Positions 8,386 to 54,359 of a DNA stretch of 54,972 nt are shown here, piece after piece; the stretch's first letter is position 1; each line of letters begins with the position of its first letter. Source of the DNA: Patescibacteria group bacterium (GTDB taxonomy: Bacteria; Patescibacteriota; Minisyncoccia; Phycocordibacterales; JBHPGB01); contig JBHPGB010000004.1 in assembly GCA_042571085.1 (NCBI GenBank), positions 1-54,972 of the forward strand, in the 5' to 3' direction. Position numbers and translations under genes: made by a program. The notes beneath the pieces were generated by a model. The model saw only the letters and a program-made list of their open reading frames with translations, was not told where the DNA came from and did not search any database.

Positions 8386-8426
8386 GGTTGAAGTATATAA
8401 TATTTCGTATTTAGTATCCAGTATTC

Positions 8427-8449
8427 ACTTGGCGCTCGGAGCGCCAAGT
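8427..8449. repeat. REP-like palindrome 1 (inverted relative to copies 2-4)
   Basis: acttggcgct-cgg-agcgccaagt, perfect 10-bp stem. Confidence 0.85.
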
Positions 8450-8463
8450 TGTATAATATTTAC

Positions 8464-9090
8464 ATGCCCAAACGCAAAATAGAATTTTATACAGGAGGAA
8501 CATATCACATATATAATAGAGGTGTAGATAAGCGTGATATTGTGACTGATCAATACGATCAGCTTCGTTTTTTACGTACTTTAAACATATTTAACACAAC
8601 AGAACATGTTGGAAGTGTGTACGAGTACGATGTGTGCACAAAGAAGAGAAAACTTGGCGCTCCGAGCACCAAGTTGGTAGAAATTATTGCGTTTAATTTG
8701 TTGGATAACCACTACCATTTGATTTTGAGGCAGTTGGTGGATGGTGGTATTAGTAAGTTCATGCAAAGTTTTTCCGCAGGGTATGTTATGTATTTTAATA
8801 ATAAACATGAAAGATCAGGACCATTATTCCAAGGAGCTTTCAAAGCATCACCTGTTGGAGAAAGAAAGGAAGAGATTATTGCTTATGTAAATTTAAATCA
8901 TGTGATTCATGGACTTGGCGCTCCGAGCGCCAAGTGGGGGATACGCAGTAGTTGGAGGGAGTATGGCGATAAAATGGCAGGTATTGTAGAGATTAAAAAA
9001 TGGAAAGATTTCAATAAAAAAAGATCAATAGAAATTGCGCGAAAAGTAAAGCAAGAGCGAGATGAGGTGAAAAAGAATGAGTTTGAATAA
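8464..9090 (+). CDS. REP-associated tyrosine transposase (RAYT/TnpA-REP, Y1 HUH family)
   Basis: YHIYNRG motif, HUH motif DNHYHL, SGPLFQG, and catalytic-type AYV-LN helix. ATG at 8464 follows TATAAT at 8452. Confidence 0.85.
   Translation: MPKRKIEFYTGGTYHIYNRGVDKRDIVTDQYDQLRFLRTLNIFNTTEHVGSVYEYDVCTKKRKLGAPSTKLVEIIAFNLLDNHYHLILRQLVDGGISKFMQSFSAGYVMYFNNKHERSGPLFQGAFKASPVGERKEEIIAYVNLNHVIHGLGAPSAKWGIRSSWREYGDKMAGIVEIKKWKDFNKKRSIEIARKVKQERDEVKKNEFE
8651..8675. repeat. REP-like palindrome 2, inside the RAYT ORF
   Basis: aacttggcgct-ccg-agcaccaagtt, translated as KLGAPSTKL. Confidence 0.85.
8913..8935. repeat. REP-like palindrome 3, inside the RAYT ORF
   Basis: acttggcgct-ccg-agcgccaagt, translated as LGAPSAK. 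Confidence 0.85.
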
Positions 9091-9114
9091 ACTTGGCGCT
9101 CCGAGCGCCAAGTT
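9090..9114. repeat. REP-like palindrome 4, directly after the RAYT stop
   Basis: aacttggcgct-ccg-agcgccaagtt. Confidence 0.85.
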
Positions 9115-9162
9115 GGTGCTTATTGTATACAAATTCTTATTTTTCCATATAATAGAGCTATT

Positions 9163-12424: not shown

Positions 12425-13789
12425 ATGGCAAAATATTCATTTCAAGATATACGTACACCACGTCGTCGTGCAGCAGCTGCAGCGAAAAAGTCGGCTGAGA
12501 AAGAAAAAATAGAAAAAGTTGTTCCACAAAAAGTTGAAGGTCTTTCAAAAAGAGAAACTAAAGAAAAGCATGACGAGCAACCGCGACAAAACATATCTGC
12601 AATAACACCTCCACCAACTTCGCGTACTAGGGAGGTGTATCAAGATACCGACTACTCACGTTTTGGTGTGTGGTTTGTTGCTGTTGTTGCTGTGATTATT
12701 TTGATTGTTTCTTTTGGTGGATTGTTTGCCGGCGCTACTGTAACAATCACACCTAAGCAGGAAACTAGTGTAATAAATGGAACATTCTCCACATCACAAG
12801 ATGCTGGTGAGGCAGATGTGTCGCACGAGGTAATGATTTTGTCGGACGAAGAGTCTATGGAAGTTCCAGCAACAGAAGAAAAAGAGGTTAGTAGACGAGC
12901 TTCAGGAACTATCGTTGTATACAACAAACACAGCTCTTCAAGCCAGAAGCTTGTGACAAGAACGCGCTTTGAAACACCAGATGGAAAAATATACAGAATA
13001 AAAGGTTCAATTATTGTTCCCGGTACAAAAGTTGAGAATGGTGAAATAATTCCAGGATCTATTGAAGTAAAAGTATATGCAGATGATCCAGGAGAAGAAT
13101 ACAACATAGGCCTTACCGACTTCACAATCCCTGGATTTGAAGGCGACCCTCGCTTTAAAACATTCTATGCACGAAGTAAGACGGAGATGACAGGAGGATT
13201 TTTGGGAACATTAAGATATCCATCAGACGAAGAAATGGAACGCGCTGTAAAAGAATTGAAAAATATTTTGAGTGAGCGTTTTGGCGTAGAAGCTAAAGCA
13301 CAAAAACCAGATAATTTTGTACTATATGATGATGCTCTATTTGTTGAGTTTGATGATATTGGTGAAGATTTTGAAAGTAAGGGTGATACTGTCACAATTA
13401 CACAACGCGCCGTACTGCATGCTATTATTTTCAAAACAGATGATTTTGCTAAATTTATTGCAAGTCAATCATTGGCATCTTTTGATGGAAGTGGTGTGAG
13501 CATACTTGGAATTGAAGAATTAGAATTTAGTATTGAAGACAAGGATTATACATCAGCACTTGATGATGAAATAACGATCAATATTTCTGGTAATGTACAC
13601 ATATTGTGGGATATTGATCACGAAGCATTAAAACAAAGGCTTATAGGGGTATCAAAAAAGAAATTCAAATTTATACTTTCTGAATTCCCAGATATAAAAA
13701 ATGCGAAAGCGTCTATTAGGCCATTCTGGAAGCGGGCATTCCCTGATAAGAGTAAGGATATAAGGATAGAGGAGACCATAGAAGGGTAG
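12425..13789 (+). CDS. Single-pass membrane protein with large C-terminal extracytoplasmic domain (baseplate-J-like, tentative)
   Basis: Charged N-terminus, one TM (FGVWFVAVVAVIILIVSFGGLFAG), then ASGTIVVYN...PGSIEVKVYADDPGEEYNIG, resembling CPR baseplate-J-like proteins from recall. Confidence 0.55.
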   Translation: MAKYSFQDIRTPRRRAAAAAKKSAEKEKIEKVVPQKVEGLSKRETKEKHDEQPRQNISAITPPPTSRTREVYQDTDYSRFGVWFVAVVAVIILIVSFGGLFAGATVTITPKQETSVINGTFSTSQDAGEADVSHEVMILSDEESMEVPATEEKEVSRRASGTIVVYNKHSSSSQKLVTRTRFETPDGKIYRIKGSIIVPGTKVENGEIIPGSIEVKVYADDPGEEYNIGLTDFTIPGFEGDPRFKTFYARSKTEMTGGFLGTLRYPSDEEMERAVKELKNILSERFGVEAKAQKPDNFVLYDDALFVEFDDIGEDFESKGDTVTITQRAVLHAIIFKTDDFAKFIASQSLASFDGSGVSILGIEELEFSIEDKDYTSALDDEITINISGNVHILWDIDHEALKQRLIGVSKKKFKFILSEFPDIKNAKASIRPFWKRAFPDKSKDIRIEETIEG

Positions 13790-13844
13790 ATTGCTTTAAA
13801 CGTTTGTTTATGGTAAATTATGAGGGTTAATTTAAGTAAAAATC

Positions 13845-14003
13845 ATGTCACAAGATAAACTAATAAAACTCCAATGTGGTGAGTGTAAGCGCATCAATTA
13901 CTGGAGCAGAAAAAACAAAAAACTAGTTACACGAAAAATTGAACTCAAAAAATGGTGTAAATGGTGTAAATCAAACAAGCCTCACAAGGAGTCTAAGAAA
14001 TAA
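13845..14003 (+). CDS. rpmG: 50S ribosomal protein L33 (below the ORF-track length cutoff)
   Basis: MSQDKLIKLQCGECKRINYWSRKNKKLVTRKIELKKWCKWCKSNKPHKESKK*, with CxxC...CxxC. Confidence 0.93.
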   Translation: MSQDKLIKLQCGECKRINYWSRKNKKLVTRKIELKKWCKWCKSNKPHKESKK

Positions 14004-14079
14004 CACCAAAAGTTTGAATTTTTACGTATTTCGTATAAACTAAGAGGGAAGTTTAATAGACTTCTTTTTTAGTTTAAAT

Positions 14080-14155
14080 AGGGGTGTGGCGCAATTGGTA
14101 GCGCACCGGTTTCCAAAACCGTAGGTTGCAAGTTCAAGTCTTGTCACCCCTGCCA
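14080..14155 (+). tRNA. trnW: tRNA-Trp (CCA)
   Basis: Acceptor AGGGGTG/CACCCCT, D arm gcgc-aattggta-gcgc, anticodon loop TTCCAAA, T loop TTCAAGT, encoded 3' CCA. C27-U43 mismatch. Confidence 0.93.
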
Positions 14156-14250
14156 CGTCGCTCGAGAGCGACGTGGCCTGCCACTCTGTTTTCAGACTTT
14201 AGTCTGAAAACAGCACCGCAGCCAAAGGCTGCGACTAAGTAGGCCACGTC
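14152..14250 (+). repeat. Multi-hairpin cassette between tRNA-Trp and the GIY-YIG gene
   Basis: Hairpins at 14152-14177, 14186-14213 and 14217-14233. Alternative 10-bp pairing 14170-14179 with 14241-14250. Confidence 0.75.
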
Positions 14251-14275
14251 ACCCGAGCATAAACCACTCTTCACC

Positions 14276-14536
14276 ATGCACTACGTCTACATCCTAAAAT
14301 CTCAAAAAACCGAAAACTGGTTTTACAAAGGATCAGCTGGAGATTTGAAAAGGCGAGTAGCACAACACAGCTCTGGAGAAGTTGATGCGACCAGACCGCA
14401 TTTGCCAGTAGAATTAGTTTATTACGAAGCATATGTATCTGAGAAAGCTGCTCGGGATAGGGAACAGAGCATCAAAAAAAGCGGTTCTGTATGGAAACCG
14501 CTAATGGACAGAATTAAATCAAGTTTGGATGAGTAA
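14276..14536 (+). CDS. Small GIY-YIG nuclease (UPF0213/SLX1-like)
   Basis: HYVYILKS...FYKGSAGDLKRRVAQH...LVYYEAY...ARDREQSIK. Confidence 0.88.
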   Translation: MHYVYILKSQKTENWFYKGSAGDLKRRVAQHSSGEVDATRPHLPVELVYYEAYVSEKAARDREQSIKKSGSVWKPLMDRIKSSLDE

Positions 14537-14548
14537 TATATTAATAAT

Positions 14549-14968
14549 ATGCAAATAAGATCAGCAACAAAATCTGACATGAAAGATGTCGAAAAAATTT
14601 TTAAATTACCAGAGCTTTCAACAGCGACTGGAGAGTATCTTTCCGCGGAAACATTATCTAAATATATGGATGAAAAGTATTTTTTAGTTGCTGAGGATGA
14701 AGGTAATATAATTGGTGCAATGTTTGGAGAGCGGTTAAAAAATGATGGTGCTATGCTTTGGGAGTTTGCTGTTGAAGAAAGTGCCAGAGGGAAAGGTATT
14801 GGCTCAGCGCTACTGGATGTTTTTGAAAAAAATATGATTTCAGAAAGTAGAAGATGGGTAATTTTATATGCACCAGTTAAAAACCCTAAAACAATTAACT
14901 TTTATGAAAAACATAAATACAGCAAAGGAAAGTTACATGTTGAATTCCTAAAATACTTAAATAAATAA
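14549..14968 (+). CDS. GNAT-family N-acetyltransferase
   Basis: FAVEESARGKGIGSALL acetyl-CoA motif and AxxFYEK-like TINFYEKH. Confidence 0.88.
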   Translation: MQIRSATKSDMKDVEKIFKLPELSTATGEYLSAETLSKYMDEKYFLVAEDEGNIIGAMFGERLKNDGAMLWEFAVEESARGKGIGSALLDVFEKNMISESRRWVILYAPVKNPKTINFYEKHKYSKGKLHVEFLKYLNK

Positions 14969-14973
14969 ACACC

Positions 14974-15042
14974 AAAAAACGAACACCTCAACCCGTTGAG
15001 GTGTTCGTTTTTTACGTTTGATTTCAGCCTTATTTTGTGGGA
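14974..15042 (+). repeat. Hairpin plus conserved 27-nt tail, copy 1
   Basis: 18-bp-arm hairpin around ctcaacccgttgag, then gtttgatttcagccttattttgtggga. Confidence 0.7.
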
Positions 15043-15059
15043 TGATTGGAGATAATAAT

Positions 15060-15728
15060 ATGCTAAACAAAATGATAGAAAATACTAAAAACATAGAATA
15101 TTGGAAAGAGGTATTACAAGCGCCAACCCCTGCGTATCAGGAACTTTTTGATTCTGAGCATAAATACTTACTGGAAAATATCACCACAAACTCAATAGTT
15201 TTAGATGTGGGCTGCGGTGAAGGAAGAAACATAAAAAGTATCTTAGAAACAAGCACTTTTGTTTATGGTGTGGATAATGATGCAGATGCAGTTAAAGACG
15301 CAAAAGAAAATTTTAAAGATTTGGATAGCGTTCAAATAATGCAAGGAGCTGCTGCAAACTTACCATTTGAAGATAAAATGTTTGATATTGTAACTTTTCT
15401 TATGATCTTGCCAAACTTAGATAAAGATAAAGAAAAATCTATGCAAGAAATATCGAGAGTTTTAAAAGATGATGGATTTGTTATCCTAAGCACTTTTGCC
15501 GACACTGCATTTGAAGACAGGATGGAAATGTATAAACTGGTCAATGCTCCAATCAAAAAAATAGAGAAAACGAAAGTCATTTTTGATGAAAGTTTCGGAG
15601 CAAATGTCTCTGAACAATTTTCATTACAAGAAATAGAAAAACTTGCAAAATCAGCAGGACTGGTAGTTTCTGACTGTAAAAAAGTTGGTCTGATTGCTCA
15701 TATCTGCAAACTTAAAAAACATCCTTAA
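15060..15728 (+). CDS. Class I SAM-dependent methyltransferase
   Basis: VLDVGCGEG, LPFEDKMFDIV, RVLKDDG. ATG at 15060 with GGAG upstream. Confidence 0.88.
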   Translation: MLNKMIENTKNIEYWKEVLQAPTPAYQELFDSEHKYLLENITTNSIVLDVGCGEGRNIKSILETSTFVYGVDNDADAVKDAKENFKDLDSVQIMQGAAANLPFEDKMFDIVTFLMILPNLDKDKEKSMQEISRVLKDDGFVILSTFADTAFEDRMEMYKLVNAPIKKIEKTKVIFDESFGANVSEQFSLQEIEKLAKSAGLVVSDCKKVGLIAHICKLKKHP

Positions 15729-16563: not shown

Positions 16564-17367
16564 ATGATAAATAAAACTACTTCATGGGAGTATAAAGAAA
16601 GTCCAAATAAAAGAATCGGTAGAAAAAAACCATGCACCGTTTTAGTTATGCATTACACAGCCGGAGGAAACACAAATCAAATTATTAAATATTTCCAGCA
16701 ACCTGACGGAGTGTCGGCTCATTTTGTCGTTGGAAGAGATGGAAGAGTTGTACAAATGGTTAAGCTTGAAGACGTAGCATGGCACGCTGGTAACTCTGTT
16801 TGGAAGGGAGAAAAATGGGTTAATTATTTTTCAGTTGGTATTGAAATTAGCAACTGGGGGCCTTTAAAGAAGAAGGGGGAAACTTACTATTGTTGGCCCA
16901 ACAATTACAACACAATACTTAATAAAGAAGTTTTTGAAGATGATTCGGGTAATTTTTGGGAAGCTTACCCCTCTAAACAAATTAATGCTGTTATTGAGCT
17001 CTGTAAATCTATACTAGAGATCATACCAGAAATAACCTTGGAAAATGTAGTTGGCCATGAACACATTTCTCCTGGCAGAAAAACAGACCCTGGTCCCGCT
17101 TTTCCATGGGATAAAGTAAAAAAAGGATTAACAAAAGAGGTTCAAAAGGAAGAATTTGTCACAAAACCACAAACTTCGCCCCACGAAAGTTTAGAAAAAG
17201 ACAATGTTGTAACAGAGAATGTTATTGAGGAAAAAGATTTAAGTGATAAAGATTTTACTGAGCAGGTAAAAGCAAGATCTGGTAACAGAAAAGGCGGAGG
17301 GGTTTTCTTAGAACTAATAAGTCGGATTGTTCAAATTATAAGCAAGGGATTGAATAAACAAAAATAA
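16564..17367 (+). CDS. N-acetylmuramoyl-L-alanine amidase (AmpD/Amidase_2 family)
   Basis: VMHYTAG, VSAHFVVGRDG, AWHAG, SVGIEISN, VGHEHISPGRKTDPGPAFPW. Confidence 0.92.
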   Translation: MINKTTSWEYKESPNKRIGRKKPCTVLVMHYTAGGNTNQIIKYFQQPDGVSAHFVVGRDGRVVQMVKLEDVAWHAGNSVWKGEKWVNYFSVGIEISNWGPLKKKGETYYCWPNNYNTILNKEVFEDDSGNFWEAYPSKQINAVIELCKSILEIIPEITLENVVGHEHISPGRKTDPGPAFPWDKVKKGLTKEVQKEEFVTKPQTSPHESLEKDNVVTENVIEEKDLSDKDFTEQVKARSGNRKGGGVFLELISRIVQIISKGLNKQK

Positions 17368-18242
17368 TGAAAACTAAAGTTTGTAAAAAAAGAACATTTA
17401 AAAAACCAGATTATTATTTATACATAGACGATTCTGGTAGTAGGCATCCTGATAAACAAAACCTTACTGATCGTGATGACGGAATGGATAATTTTGCTTT
17501 AGGTGGTGTTTTGGTTGCCCAAAAGGATAAAAAAAATATCAAACAAAAATATGAGGCTTTCTGTGATAAATGGAACATAGATTATCCTCTACATTCATCG
17601 GAAATCCGTGGCATGAGAAATAATTTTTCTTGGTTAGAAGAGGGGGTGAAGAGGCGGGAAAATTTTTTAGAAGAGCTCGAAGAATTTTTGATATCTTTGC
17701 CTGTTGTTGGTTTTGCTAGTGTAATTTACAGACCTGGTTATAATGAGCGATACGAAAAAAAGTATGGTGATAACCGTTGGATGATGTGCAAAACAGCTTA
17801 TACTATTTTGATTGAGAGAGTTGCTAAACAATTAAAAAAAACAAATAGTACCATGCTTGTTCGTTTTGAAGAAGTTGGCAGAAGAGAAGATCGAGCAATA
17901 AGTGAATATGCTAAAGATATGAAAAATATTGGGCACCCTTTTGATGCAAATGCTTCTGCCAAATATAATGCCATTACACAAAATGAGTATAAGAAAATTC
18001 TTTTGGGTGCTCCAAAAAGAAAGAAAAAATGGAATTTGTTTATTCAGATTGCAGATTTATATTTATACCCTATGGTAAAAAGAAGATATGATCAAGAGTA
18101 CAGGCCGTGGAAAATGTTTTATAAACACGGTAAGGTTATTGATGCATATTTACCAGATGGGTGTTTAGAGGTTGAGGGTATTAAATATAGTTGTTTTGAG
18201 AATTTTAATATACCAGATAGTAAAAAACCTAAGCAAGCTTAG
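17367..18242 (+). CDS. DUF3800-family protein (RNase H-like acidic motifs)
   Basis: LYIDDSG, FALGGV, LHSSEI and IQIADL match the DUF3800 pattern (IDESG...QxAD). Confidence 0.8.
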   Translation: MKTKVCKKRTFKKPDYYLYIDDSGSRHPDKQNLTDRDDGMDNFALGGVLVAQKDKKNIKQKYEAFCDKWNIDYPLHSSEIRGMRNNFSWLEEGVKRRENFLEELEEFLISLPVVGFASVIYRPGYNERYEKKYGDNRWMMCKTAYTILIERVAKQLKKTNSTMLVRFEEVGRREDRAISEYAKDMKNIGHPFDANASAKYNAITQNEYKKILLGAPKRKKKWNLFIQIADLYLYPMVKRRYDQEYRPWKMFYKHGKVIDAYLPDGCLEVEGIKYSCFENFNIPDSKKPKQA

Positions 18243-18336: not shown

Positions 18337-18406
18337 ACTTTTTTTTGTAAAGGGGTAAAATTAATTTTAATATTAAAATTAATTTTACCCCTTTACAAAA
18401 AAAAGT
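18337..18406. repeat. Perfect 70-bp palindrome with no loop
   Basis: acttttttttgtaaaggggtaaaattaattttaat followed by its exact reverse complement. Confidence 0.85.
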
Positions 18407-20837: not shown

Positions 20838-20980
20838 TACCCCGTCTGCTTGCAGCGGGGATTACAAGTGCAATAAACTGATATGCCCGGAGGGCACACT
20901 TTACCAAAAATTACCCCCGGTTCGCAGCAGGCTTCAATCGAGAATATATCATAGTTTGCTGCGAGGTAATTTATATTTTC
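20838..20980 (+). mobile_element. ~140-bp palindrome-rich element (IS200/IS605/REP-like non-autonomous), copy A
   Basis: ccccgtctgcttgcagcgggg, tgcccggagggca and aaattacccccgg...gctgcgaggtaattt. Homologous to 27764-27900 in the opposite orientation. Confidence 0.7.
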
Positions 20981-27588: not shown

Positions 27589-28209
27589 TTACTTTGTTCG
27601 TGCGACGTAAGTATTTAGCAGTTGTGTGATTATTGTTGTGATAAAAAGCAGAATAAAAATCTCAAATGGGAATTTAAAGAATGCGATTATAGAAAATAAA
27701 AATAAAAATCCTGTTAAAAATATTTCAAAAGTACGGTAATATTTTTTTAGAAAAATATAAAATAAATTACCCCGCAGCAAGCTACGCGGTATTTCCAATG
27801 AAACTTGCTGCGGACCGGGGGTAATTTTTGCTAAGGAGTGCCCCTCCGGGCACACTCGTTTATTGAGCTTGTTCATCCCCGCTGCAAGCAGACGGGGAGT
27901 GGTCCCCAAGCACGACAATAAAATAAATAAAAAATTAGCAAAAATAAACCATGGTATAAAAGATCCCCAGAAGCCTTTCCATATTACATGCATGGAATGT
28001 TGTCGCGGATTTGTAAGACTGTATTCAAAAGCTCCATTTCTTTCAACCATGTCATAACTCGAATTCATAGATACGAATTCTACAGGAAATCCAAATTGAA
28101 TATCCCTTTCTTGCTCCACAGTGTGCACCATTGTGGGGGCAAATAATGTGCATACCATCGCTATCAATGTAAGTGCGAGTATGTGAAAAGATTGTTTTAT
28201 TGATTTCAT
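27589..28209 (-). CDS. Membrane protein carrying an in-frame palindromic element
   Basis: TM-FGFP-TM N-terminal half. About 45 codons read through element copy B, followed by a further hydrophobic tail. Confidence 0.55.
   Translation of the reverse strand: MKSIKQSFHILALTLIAMVCTLFAPTMVHTVEQERDIQFGFPVEFVSMNSSYDMVERNGAFEYSLTNPRQHSMHVIWKGFWGSFIPWFIFANFLFILLSCLGTTPRLLAAGMNKLNKRVCPEGHSLAKITPGPQQVSLEIPRSLLRGNLFYIFLKKYYRTFEIFLTGFLFLFSIIAFFKFPFEIFILLFITTIITQLLNTYVARTK
27764..27900 (-). mobile_element. ~140-bp palindrome-rich element, copy B
   Basis: Reverse complement aligns with 20838-20980. Includes taccccgcagcaagctacgcggtat. Confidence 0.7.
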
Positions 28210-33069: not shown

Positions 33070-33408
33070 ATGCAAGAACAAGATCAAGTATTTCTTGAGT
33101 ATGTTGTGAAAGCATTGGTTGATAATCCTGACGCTGTAAAAGTTGACCGAAAGGTTGATGAGATGGGTGTTCTTTTGACACTAGACATCGACGCAGCAGA
33201 CATGGGTAAAATTATTGGCCGAAGTGGAAACACAGCAAAGGCTCTTAGAACTCTTCTTCGTGTAGTTGGAATGAAAAACAACTCACGTGTAAACCTTAAG
33301 ATCAACGAACCAGAAGGCGGTCAGCGTTACGAAGCTGGAGCATCTGACGAAGCTAGCTCAACTACAGCAGCTGATGTTGATGAGGCAATAGAAGAACTTA
33401 AAGCGTAA
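33070..33408 (+). CDS. khpA: KH-domain RNA-binding protein
   Basis: LEYVVKALVDNPDAV...DMGKIIGRSGNTAKALRTLL. Confidence 0.92.
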   Translation: MQEQDQVFLEYVVKALVDNPDAVKVDRKVDEMGVLLTLDIDAADMGKIIGRSGNTAKALRTLLRVVGMKNNSRVNLKINEPEGGQRYEAGASDEASSTTAADVDEAIEELKA

Positions 33409-33469
33409 ATTTTAAAGAAAAAACCGTGCTATACTTATAGCACGGTTTTTTCTTTAAAATTTACGCTTT
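33400..33469. repeat. 70-bp palindrome (34-bp arms, 2-nt loop) overlapping the khpA stop
   Basis: aaagcgtaaattttaaagaaaaaaccgtgctata-ct-exact reverse complement. Confidence 0.85.
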
Positions 33470-52231: not shown

Positions 52232-52298
52232 AGTAGTAAAATATAAATAAAAAGAGCGCGGGCAAAGCCCGCGCTCTTTTTATTTATATTTTACTACT
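52232..52298. repeat. 67-bp palindrome / bidirectional terminator (32-bp arms)
   Basis: agtagtaaaatataaataaaaagagcgcgggc-aaa-exact reverse complement. Overlaps the SIMPL stop. Confidence 0.8.
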
Positions 52299-53345: not shown

Positions 53346-54359
53346 ATGGCATTATTCTCAAAAAAACTAGGCATAGATTTAGGTACAGCTAACACGCTAG
53401 TGTATATTCCTGGTAAGGATATTGTGCTTAACGAGCCGTCTGTGGTGGCTATTTCTGAGCAGGATAATAAGATTTTGGCTGTTGGTATAGACGCTAAAGA
53501 AATGATTGGGCGCACTCCAGATAGCATTATTGCATACCGACCAATGCGTGACGGGGTGATTGCTGATTATCGCGTAACAGAGGCGATGCTTAAATATTAT
53601 ATGAATAAAGCTCTAGGAAAATGGAGCTTACTTAAGCCAGACGTGATGGTTTCTGTGCCGGCCGGAGTTACTTCTACAGAACGCCGTGCAGTTGTTGAAG
53701 CGGCAGTGAAAGCTGGTGCAAAAAATGCTTACGTGGTTAAAGAGCCAATCTTGGCGGCAATTGGTGCTGGCATTCCGATATACGAGGCGCGTGGGAATAT
53801 GGTTATTGATATCGGTGGTGGTACTACAGATGTGGCTGTGATTTCGCTTGGAGGAATCGTTGCTTGTACATCTGTGAAAGTCGCCGGAGATAAAATCGAT
53901 CACGCAATTGCTGATTACATTAAAAAAACATTCAACTTAGCGATAGGGGACAAAATGGCTGAGGACATCAAAATTAAAATTGGCTCAGCTGTGCCTCTGG
54001 AAGAAGAATTAACAATGGCTGTAAAAGGGCGCGACTTCGTGTCAGGTTTGCCGCGCAAGGCAGACATTAGTACAAATGAAATTGTAAAAGCTATTGATAA
54101 AGAATTGAAAGAGATGGTGAAAGCTGTAAAGACTGTCTTGCAAGAAACTCCACCAGAACTTTCATCAGACATTATAGATAAAGGAATTATTATGACTGGC
54201 GGCTCAAGCCAGCTACGTAATCTGCCCGAGCTTATTCATCGCCGAACGGGTGTGAAAGCGGCTCTTGCAAAAGATGCACTCTATTGTGTAGCGAAGGGGA
54301 CAGGGATAGCGCTGGAGCATCTCGATACATACAAAAAATCAATTATTGCGAAGAAATAA
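53346..54359 (+). CDS. mreB: Rod shape-determining actin homologue MreB/Mbl
   Basis: GIDLGTANT, NEPSVVA, RPMRDGVIAD, VPAGVTSTERRAV, DIGGGTT, MTGGSS. Confidence 0.96.
   Translation: MALFSKKLGIDLGTANTLVYIPGKDIVLNEPSVVAISEQDNKILAVGIDAKEMIGRTPDSIIAYRPMRDGVIADYRVTEAMLKYYMNKALGKWSLLKPDVMVSVPAGVTSTERRAVVEAAVKAGAKNAYVVKEPILAAIGAGIPIYEARGNMVIDIGGGTTDVAVISLGGIVACTSVKVAGDKIDHAIADYIKKTFNLAIGDKMAEDIKIKIGSAVPLEEELTMAVKGRDFVSGLPRKADISTNEIVKAIDKELKEMVKAVKTVLQETPPELSSDIIDKGIIMTGGSSQLRNLPELIHRRTGVKAALAKDALYCVAKGTGIALEHLDTYKKSIIAKK

Follow-up and report, generated by a model that had tools for sequence, protein, structure and literature searches.

A 24-bp palindrome at the 3' end of a tRNA-Trp gene and an adjacent minimal GIY-YIG nuclease gene: the probable footprint of very small mobile elements in Patescibacteria

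Introduction

The stretch of DNA analysed here, called the window below, is positions 1 to 54,972 of contig JBHPGB010000004.1 (assembly GCA_042571085.1). It comes from a low-GC (about 37%) genome of the candidate phyla radiation (CPR)/Patescibacteria, whose nearest proteins are found in Parcubacteria/Patescibacteria metagenome-assembled genomes. The tRNA-Trp gene of the window is followed by a GC-rich structured stretch (14152-14258, + strand) and then by a small gene for a GIY-YIG nuclease. The locus raises the question of whether this arrangement acts at the level of RNA or is the trace of mobile DNA. A preliminary description saw here a two-state hairpin cassette that can capture the CCA end of the tRNA, and proposed either a minimal tRNA-targeting nuclease-plus-hairpin mobile unit or a coupling of tRNA maturation to nuclease expression. 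The features that it listed are all present where it placed them. The folding energy of 14152-14260 is -61.5 kcal/mol, compared to -29.3 +/- 3.4 for shuffled sequences (z = -9.5). We consider it probable that the cassette is the trace, at this site, of a family of very small mobile elements that act at the DNA level and occur in CPR/Patescibacteria as well as in some other bacteria, and in which the nuclease cuts a short palindrome and mobilises it in trans.

Results

A palindrome between G73 and C74 of tRNA-Trp

The features of the locus are collected in Table 1. The hairpin next to the tRNA, gccacgtcgctc-ga-gagcgacgtggc, had been described as a perfect 12-bp structure. It is found at 14152-14177, with about 11 bp usable because the 2-nt loop prevents the innermost pair. 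It does not capture the CCA of the tRNA, as was suggested; instead, a 24-bp palindrome carrying its own CCA has evidently been inserted exactly between G73 and C74 of the tRNA-Trp gene, duplicating cctg. The first three bases of the palindrome replace the encoded CCA, and the tRNA-Trp gene therefore remains intact. The sequence cctgcca does occur a second time, at 14177-14183, and had been taken for a repeat of the tRNA end; it is better read as an insertion scar, consisting of the 4-bp duplication and the displaced original CCA. The window palindrome is the canonical CCACGTCGCTCGCGAGCGACGTGG with one substitution at its centre (C->A at 14165). A truncated and slightly diverged copy lies 64 nt beyond the first, and no further copy was found in the whole window.

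The window hairpin is not a chance structure, since the same 24-mer, with two variable positions allowed, is present on at least 120 metagenome contigs (scanned with CCACGTCGNTCGCGANCGACGTGG as query). No match was found in 2.9 million viral contigs. Copy statistics refer to the matches listed (113 distinct copies for the direct repeats, 125 copies for the tRNA ends), and a frame shifted by 4 nt served as the control for direct repeats. An exact 4-nt direct repeat flanks 63 of the 113 distinct copies and an exact 5-nt repeat another 15, giving 78 in total compared to 1 in the shifted control. The repeated sequence changes between copies (caag, ttga, ttta, cggg, tgag and others).

In 31 of the 125 copies, the first CCA of the palindrome is the 3' end of a tRNA. 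Without exception these copies directly follow position 73, and they involve ten tRNA species, some of the genes encoding no CCA of their own; the chance expectation is about 0.01 (85 tRNAs in 788 kb). Three such genes (in loci L145, L119 and L085) have no CCA after the duplication, and here the element supplies the sole encoded CCA. In the closest relatives of the window locus, the same palindrome comes directly after the tRNA end, then TGG, and then a copy of the last bases of that particular tRNA, namely CCTGCCA for Trp, CCAGCCA for Gln, CTCCGCCA for Ser and Asp, and CACCGCCA for Ser(cga). Other palindrome copies lie far from any tRNA or open reading frame (ORF). Taken at face value, these sequences establish insertion of the palindrome with 4-5-bp duplications and with a base-exact preference for the 73/74 position of tRNA.

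Some copies occupy other positions. Those in L142, L165, L166, L194, L195, L133 and L017 have no annotated tRNA and share a left flank, ...CGAACG.CTTCCACGAGCCCCTG, which ends like the tRNA-Trp acceptor; it could be coding sequence or a tRNA remnant, and matches no Rfam family. One copy (L117:1361-1456) stands against the 5' end of a minus-strand tRNA instead of its 3' end, with the duplication cctg/cagg, and a few lie in the spacers of tRNA clusters (L081).

The nuclease is a bare GIY-YIG domain

The nuclease gene codes for an 86-aa protein, in which PF01541 covers residues 1-69 and Pfam finds no other domain. Residues Y5, Y17, G19, R27, H31, E51, R62 and E63 are invariant in the alignment, and the residues of catalytic type are conserved. 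The AlphaFold model (pLDDT 95.5) is a single compact β-β-α-β-α-α domain, which is the bare GIY-YIG fold with one additional C-terminal helix and no DNA-binding domain. Profile comparison with the PDB gave 1zg2 (E=9e-10), 1ywl (1e-6) and SLX1 (7e-4), and Foldseek ranked 1zg2, SLX1 and At-HIGLE (TM 0.55-0.68) all before UvrC. The nearest solved structures are therefore UPF0213 BH0048, SLX1 and At-HIGLE, of the structure-specific branch, and by both profile and model the protein is a minimal GIY-YIG nuclease of the SLX1/UPF0213-like type.

Homologues at 52-72% identity occur across many CPR lineages. A profile search found 17,755 cluster representatives at E <= 1e-3 and 2,632 at E <= 1e-10, while NCBIfam gave no match to the 86-aa protein and the plasmid and phage collections gave one weak protein match each. 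A second weak GIY-YIG-like match in the window, at 53769-53879 on the minus strand, is spurious, being antisense within mreB.

Given its closest solved relatives and the very large size of its family, the protein might be a housekeeping repair nuclease of the SLX1/UPF0213 type that shares an operon with tRNA-Trp, with the hairpins as ordinary trailer, terminator or processing structures. We regard this as very improbable, because the window hairpins have no + strand T-run, an identical palindrome with target duplications is found at unrelated sites, several paralogues can surround one tRNA, and the position of the gene varies among tRNA species and extends to rRNA genes (see below). An intrinsic-terminator function for the hairpins was likewise rejected, since there is no + strand terminator-like site before 14974.

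The gene is also missing from a sister locus. Sister loci were sought via the 454-aa gene upstream, whose nearest relative (67% identity) lies on a contig that stops before the tRNA. A distant sister locus, L202 (52% identity), has rpmG and tRNA-Trp followed by a different trailer, with neither palindrome nor nuclease gene. The tRNA-Trp of this locus (L202:4803-5062) has no encoded CCA and is followed by two copies of a hairpin-containing repeat of about 58 nt, gcaaaatcttaacatgaaagcgacagctttcatgtttttgattttgcagggttcac.

Nuclease genes accompany stable-RNA genes

Nuclease homologues were surveyed at 80 loci from species-representative genomes, with tRNAs called by ARAGORN. In 39 of them a tRNA on the same strand lies near the gene, at most 450 nt before it or 170 nt after it, compared to about 2.5 expected from the density in the outer parts of the same loci (1 tRNA per 10 kb). 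In the closest relatives the gene is 3' of tRNA-Trp, as in the window; others come after Ser, Asp, Gln, Met, Phe or Leu tRNA, and further homologues stand directly before a Trp, Glu, Cys, Gly, Pro, Ala or Ser tRNA. Two paralogues surround a single tRNA in L008, L012, L021, L029 and L069. Among the palindrome copies listed above, a nuclease gene lies within 500 nt of 18 of the 31 at tRNA ends, compared to 10 of the 94 others. GIY-YIG homologues are thus strongly associated with tRNA ends and with hairpins; a lack of such association, which by the preliminary description would have told against its reading, is not seen.

The more distant subfamilies have terminal inverted repeats (TIRs) on either side of the ORF, for example ACCCCCACACCT...AGGTGTGGGGGT. 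Perfect inverted repeats of at least 11 bp surround 34 ORFs, forming units of 285-440 bp, and an exact 4-5-nt duplication is present at the boundary of 11 of these 34 units, with 0 in the shifted control. The terminal repeats clearly bound the enzyme gene in units with CCCCCACACC-type ends and in L032, where the ORF lies inside the palindrome at the end of tRNA-Phe and is followed by the duplicated tRNA end. The subfamily of the window has only palindrome-ORF-palindrome and palindrome-ORF arrangements, and its gene is not cleanly bounded by palindrome halves. Several loci (L014:2889-2990, L027, L184, L016, L129, L002) have tandem arrays 3' of the tRNA-end palindrome, with 2-4 units of about 29 nt, each combining about 10 variable nt with the palindrome's right half and the duplicated end of the tRNA. 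A left arm beside such an array could find its partner in any one of several right arms.

The family is not confined to tRNA genes. In Methylotuvimicrobium sp. KM1 (NZ_CP173170.1, a cultured organism; L024:2318-5719), a GIY-YIG ORF unit lies inside the 23S rRNA gene, bounded by the 24-bp inverted repeat GAATTTAGGTGCGGGGCAAGCCCC and resembling an intervening sequence. The arrangement recurs in L035, L036, L040 and L078, and the hosts are cultured and uncultured methanotrophs. In L056:1005-1632, a unit with 20-bp TIRs ends in the first bases of an RNase P RNA gene, and so stands at the 5' end of that gene, which is of the bacterial type (Rfam, 181 bits). In L029, L031, L045 and L176, duplicated 5' halves of the tRNA lie on the flanks of ORFs that stand just before or within tRNA genes; in L176, the 24-bp palindrome also occupies the anticodon loop of the upstream tRNA half, with the duplication TCCA.

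The nuclease family is therefore linked to tRNA genes and to the palindrome, and is also found in rRNA and RNase P RNA genes. Judged by their boundaries, ORF units with TIRs and target-site duplications (TSDs), and insertions of this kind in stable-RNA genes, are well established. The natural reading of these arrangements is that they belong to one family of tiny elements, whose ORF-less derivatives would be the 24-bp palindromes.

Genes placed beside highly conserved targets (tRNA, rRNA and RNase P RNA) also bring to mind free-standing homing endonucleases such as SegB of phage T4, which would cleave tRNA alleles that lack the nuclease and then be copied into them through double-strand-break repair, with the hairpins as incidental features. 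The partial duplications of tRNA halves around several ORFs fit such homing, and identities of 60-70% over several CPR phyla suggest horizontal spread. Characterised GIY-YIG homing enzymes have a DNA-binding domain (PMC11893778), which the 86-residue protein lacks. TSDs and TIRs are not products of homing, and the ORF-less palindromes spread alone. We therefore consider homing improbable.

A second palindrome copy accounts for the long-range pairing

The 'state 2' of the preliminary description rests on gacgtggcct (14170-14179), which is perfectly complementary to aggccacgtc (14241-14250). The pairing is real and extends further, gctcg (14160-14164) pairing with cgagc (14254-14258), such that overall 14240-14258 pairs with 14160-14180 and the tagg before the truncated palindrome is complementary to the duplicated cctg. 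It is also the minimum-energy fold, in which the tRNA cloverleaf is intact and GCCACGUC is single-stranded. The stem is explained by the truncated second copy, because any two copies of one palindrome are mutually complementary.

The pairing recurs in relatives, as the preliminary description anticipated. A site that could pair with both the right arm and the duplicated bases (consensus YAGGTCACGT) matches at >=10 of 12 positions in the majority of 35 related loci, and at <=9 of 12 in about one third. Its outer four bases follow the type of tRNA (CAGG or TAGG for Trp, CTGG for Gln, TGGG for Asp, GGGG for Ser), and most differences are compatible with G.U/G.T pairing on the + strand. The distance from this site to the ATG ranges from 22 to 245 nt, and in many relatives a terminator-like hairpin and an AT-rich stretch lie between them. 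The two other hairpins of the window (14186-14233) are not conserved; most relatives have the terminator-like hairpin in their place.

These observations bear on the suggestion of a two-state RNA switch, in which the exchange between the CCA hairpin and the long-range stem links maturation of the tRNA 3' end to how the nuclease mRNA is expressed or processed, or else keeps the tRNA end accessible after insertion. In its favour, the predicted fold leaves GCCACGUC unpaired beside an intact cloverleaf; neither a promoter nor a + strand terminator separates the window tRNA from the ORF; and the conservation of the complementary site, with its dependence on tRNA type and its G.U-compatible substitutions, points in the same direction. 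Against this, two copies of one DNA palindrome give complementarity for free, G.T wobbles fit a hairpin in single-stranded DNA (ssDNA) equally well, no Rfam family matches, and the palindrome is also found far from tRNAs and ORFs. The variable distance to the ATG, the intervening terminator-like hairpins and the low-scoring third of the loci argue, on comparative sequence grounds, against a dedicated riboswitch-like regulator. We judge the switch unlikely. The motif itself still merits attention, since each insertion event could generate the inverted copy, or else + strand pairing, as RNA or ssDNA, could be under selection.

Gene context and other features of the window

An Rfam scan of 13500-15200 at a permissive threshold found no family besides tRNA. 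No + strand terminator-like or promoter-like site was found between tRNA-Trp and the nuclease ORF, and the sole terminator-like match near the hairpins is on the minus strand (14235-14215). The genes rpmG, tRNA-Trp, GIY-YIG and GNAT probably form one transcription unit, which would end at the first + strand terminator (Table 1). Expression of the nuclease by read-through from the tRNA transcript is plausible, since no promoter- or terminator-like site separates the two.

Table 1. Features of the tRNA-Trp/GIY-YIG locus in the window.
Feature	Position	Strand	Basis or remark
rpmG (L33)	13845-14003	+	upstream of tRNA-Trp
tRNA-Trp, anticodon CCA, CCA end encoded	14080-14155	+	ARAGORN; Rfam tRNA 66.8 bits; sequence
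Left TSD cctg, the end of the acceptor stem plus discriminator G73	14149-14152	+	sequence
Last three bases of tRNA-Trp (CCA), also the first three of the inserted palindrome	14153-14155	+	sequence
24-bp palindrome copy CCACGTCGCTCGAGAGCGACGTGG, ORF-less, MITE-like (miniature inverted-repeat transposable element)	14153-14176	unstranded	sequence
Right TSD cctg	14177-14180	+	sequence; flanks of other copies
Putative original CCA of tRNA-Trp, displaced	14181-14183	+	insertion anatomy; same layout in relatives
Two lineage-specific hairpins	14186-14213 and 14217-14233	+	no + strand T-run
Truncated second palindrome copy CCACGTCACCCGAGC (14244-14258), preceded by tagg	14240-14258	+	sequence, folding
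86-aa GIY-YIG ORF	14276-14536	+	Pfam PF01541 E=1.4e-10
GNAT acetyltransferase gene, starting 12 nt past the nuclease stop	14549 onward	+	context; Pfam
First + strand intrinsic terminator	14974-15013	+	terminator scan

The genes 3' of tRNA-Trp look accessory by their Pfam matches (GNAT, methyltransferase, CYTH, amidase_2, DUF3800), as would be expected if this were the attL junction of a tRNA-integrated genomic island, with integrase-borne accessory genes and cctgcca as the att core. We find this hardly credible, given that only 22 nt separate the repeat from the tRNA end, that it encloses nothing but the palindrome, and that a Pfam scan of the eight gene products of 13.8-18.2 kb showed no integrase. 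The island was rejected as a candidate because no convincing attR-type repeat of the tRNA end is found downstream (no further copy of the tRNA 3' end at >=9/11 matches looks like an attR). The DUF3800 gene of this accessory stretch is at 17367-18242; dedicated candidate RNA motifs are known for DUF3800 genes.

Other repeats were noted elsewhere in the window. Inverted repeats of about 100 nt at 20840-20941 and 27794-27897 bracket a 6.8-kb segment, with three adjoining arms and 81-100% complementarity; they may mark a composite element, or else a segment that can invert. Long AT-rich palindromes, perfect and with arms of 32-37 nt, occur at 18337-18406, 33400-33469 and 52232-52298, the last two of which have a GC core between A/T runs and look like bidirectional terminators.

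Discussion

Comparison with known systems

The closest known system is that of the Ssn nucleases (Chenal et al., 2025; PMC11893778), of which SsnA of Neisseria meningitidis (cd10448) is an example. These single-domain GIY-YIG enzymes of 94 aa bind, on ssDNA, to a cognate hairpin repeat (NTS/SRM) and cut a few nt upstream; their genes are flanked by their repeats, in an architecture that the authors call 'identical to' an insertion sequence (PMC11893778). The window protein is likewise a single GIY-YIG domain of about 90 aa, and at 86 aa it is close to the lower end of the approximate Ssn size range (~90-150 aa). The conserved Tyr/Tyr/Glu residues correspond (Y6, Y17 and E64 in SsnA; Y5, Y17 and E63 here), and in both cases a cognate hairpin-forming repeat (20-50 nt) lies next to the gene and is also dispersed elsewhere, here on the contigs counted above. 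The systems also differ. The SRM pattern HGTCWYN(0-2)YYVSBRHN(0-5)WNVSBRGN(0-2)RNCYNB was matched nowhere in the window and at 0 of 90 homologue loci (+/-500 nt), while the NTS positive control matched. Ssn hosts are mainly Pseudomonadati, whereas the hosts here are CPR bacteria, and the nearest solved relatives here, SLX1/UPF0213, are listed as a family separate from Ssn (PMC11893778). The main text of the Ssn paper makes no mention of tRNA, TSDs, CPR bacteria, or insertion into rRNA or RNase P RNA genes (PMC11893778). By analogy, the window system may work like the Ssn/hairpin-repeat system, and the protein would be a candidate rather than an established member of cd10448.

In anatomy the elements resemble MITEs and small TIR-TSD transposons, which also have terminal inverted repeats, short target duplications, ORF-less copies and ORF-carrying relatives. 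However, the ORF-less form here, at 24 bp, is far shorter than known MITEs, and the only candidate enzyme is an 85-aa GIY-YIG nuclease, not a transposase of the DDE, HUH or recombinase type.

Short palindromes flanking a small nuclease gene are also characteristic of repetitive extragenic palindromes (REP/REPIN) and their associated tyrosine transposases (RAYTs; Y1, IS200-like). In these the enzyme is HUH/Y1 and there is no target duplication, whereas here it is GIY-YIG with duplications, such that the elements belong neither with REP/RAYT nor with IS200/IS605. The window does hold a pair of the RAYT kind, at 8425-9117: a Y1_Tnp gene (8449-9090; IS200/RAYT-type; Pfam 6.8e-7) with four copies of the 23-nt palindrome ACTTGGCGCTCCGAGCGCCAAGT, two flanking the transposase gene and two in frame inside it, where they encode LGAPSTK and LGAPSAK. 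No flanking duplications were found at these four copies. The window thus contains two palindrome/nuclease pairs in one genome, and palindromes inside a transposase reading frame are unusual.

Like T4 SegB, the window nuclease is a GIY-YIG protein encoded among tRNA genes, with a selfish kind of inheritance (PMC13096335). In Seg enzymes a DNA-binding domain is present, and their spread relies on break repair and involves neither TIRs nor TSDs, whereas here a bare catalytic domain goes with elements that have both, and the protein is not of the Seg type. GIY-YIG ORFs have been noted in non-intron insertions in a survey of CPR rRNA genes (PMC11270868). The 23S insertion of Methylotuvimicrobium matches that pattern and is bounded by a long inverted repeat, an anatomy absent from the survey (PMC11270868). 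The use of tRNA genes as safe havens in gene-dense genomes is shared with TRE of Dictyostelium and Ty3 of yeast (PMC5006619). These are eukaryotic, RNA-mediated and insert near tRNA genes, whereas here a DNA palindrome sits exactly at 73/74 and the CCA is regenerated. In the literature collection searched, there is no paper describing GIY-YIG genes in a TIR/TSD structure, or palindromes at tRNA 73/74, in bacteria.

Proposed mechanism

Each element would consist of a short GC-rich palindrome or a pair of TIRs, with autonomous-looking copies adding one GIY-YIG gene of about 85 aa. We infer that the nuclease mobilises the palindrome. Like the related Ssn enzymes, which recognise their repeat on ssDNA, it would recognise the cognate palindrome in hairpin or cruciform form and make cuts staggered by 4-5 nt, and it could thereby move its own gene and, in trans, ORF-less palindromes. 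Stable-RNA genes may be hit through real targeting of the stem/single-strand junction at the tRNA 3' end, and also since insertion of a hairpin there is tolerated and transcribed; such insertions would persist thanks to their removal when the transcript is processed. While a tRNA gene is transiently single-stranded, its acceptor-stem/NCCA junction may mimic the foot of the element hairpin, N-CCA-CGTC...GACG-TGG-N', which would explain the base-exact choice of site. 'State 1' and 'state 2' would then arise from the mutual complementarity of palindrome copies, and any role at the RNA level, for example in making the CCA end available to 3' processing, would come second.

Neither an inverted repeat nor a palindrome follows the nuclease stop codon in the window. 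The mobile nuclease-plus-hairpin unit of the preliminary description is broadly the best reading, except that 14152-14536 is no complete mobile element, because the gene has no right end. The window copy of the gene is probably immobile by itself.

We also put forward, more tentatively and as a proposal somewhat likelier to fail than to hold, that the GIY-YIG nuclease of about 85 aa is the sole protein of a new prokaryotic cut-and-insert class. This class would comprise autonomous TIR units of about 300 bp, with 4-5-bp duplications and 24-bp ORF-less derivatives, homing base-exactly to tRNA 73/74, where the CCA is rebuilt, and to other stable-RNA genes. In that case no smaller autonomous transposons would be known, and transposition would have a new enzymatic route.

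Several observations weigh against mobilisation by the nuclease. The first concerns empty sites, a search for which the preliminary description had proposed. Uninterrupted junctions were rebuilt for 100 palindrome copies and compared by BLAST with all 208 fetched loci; no orthologous empty site was found among these, the matches being to self or at the level of the tRNA only. Insertion is therefore inferred from the duplications and the copy number rather than from a before/after pair. An empty or excised allele of the window would read ...CCCCTG joined to CCACTCTG, and be 28 bp (24 + 4) shorter. Contigs from public runs cover rpmG, the tRNA and GNAT of one related sediment population in fragments, and are uninformative on the insert; an exact match to the L33 protein of the window is not on record.

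Secondly, the covariation of the complementary site with tRNA type, together with its G.U pairs, is not predicted if the pairing is an accidental by-product. Thirdly, among the matches listed, only about 22% of palindrome copies have a nuclease gene within 500 nt. Fourthly, the palindrome-ORF-palindrome arrangements and the tandem right-arm arrays (L010, L014, L027, L184) do not follow from a simple inverted-repeat transposon model. The tandem 'right arm + tRNA end' arrays (L014, L027, L016, L184, L129) and the inverted tRNA end after the second palindrome in L004/L005 are not explained by our proposal. Finally, we know of no prokaryotic GIY-YIG enzyme that acts as a transposase, and of no ligation or strand-transfer activity to cite; how the strands are rejoined is not explained either.

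Implications

For annotation, an 'extra' CCA, direct repeats and hairpins at the 3' ends of CPR tRNA genes are better read as insertion scars than as features of the tRNA. That such an insertion is tolerated has a reason, in that the element supplies the CCA that it displaces. The 23S rRNA relative in Methylotuvimicrobium is experimentally tractable, because its host can be cultured.

If the nuclease does move the palindromes, the nuclease/hairpin pairing of Ssn would become a mechanism of mobility, recognisable by its target duplications. The GIY-YIG fold would then join those of the prokaryotic transposases. At 24 bp, or about 300 bp with the gene, they would be small enough to escape the programs that look for insertion sequences and MITEs. 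A bare 86-residue enzyme with a hairpin-programmed, base-precise choice of site would also be a candidate ssDNA tool. Such elements would account for the recurrent GIY-YIG genes in the rRNA insertions of CPR bacteria and beside their tRNAs.

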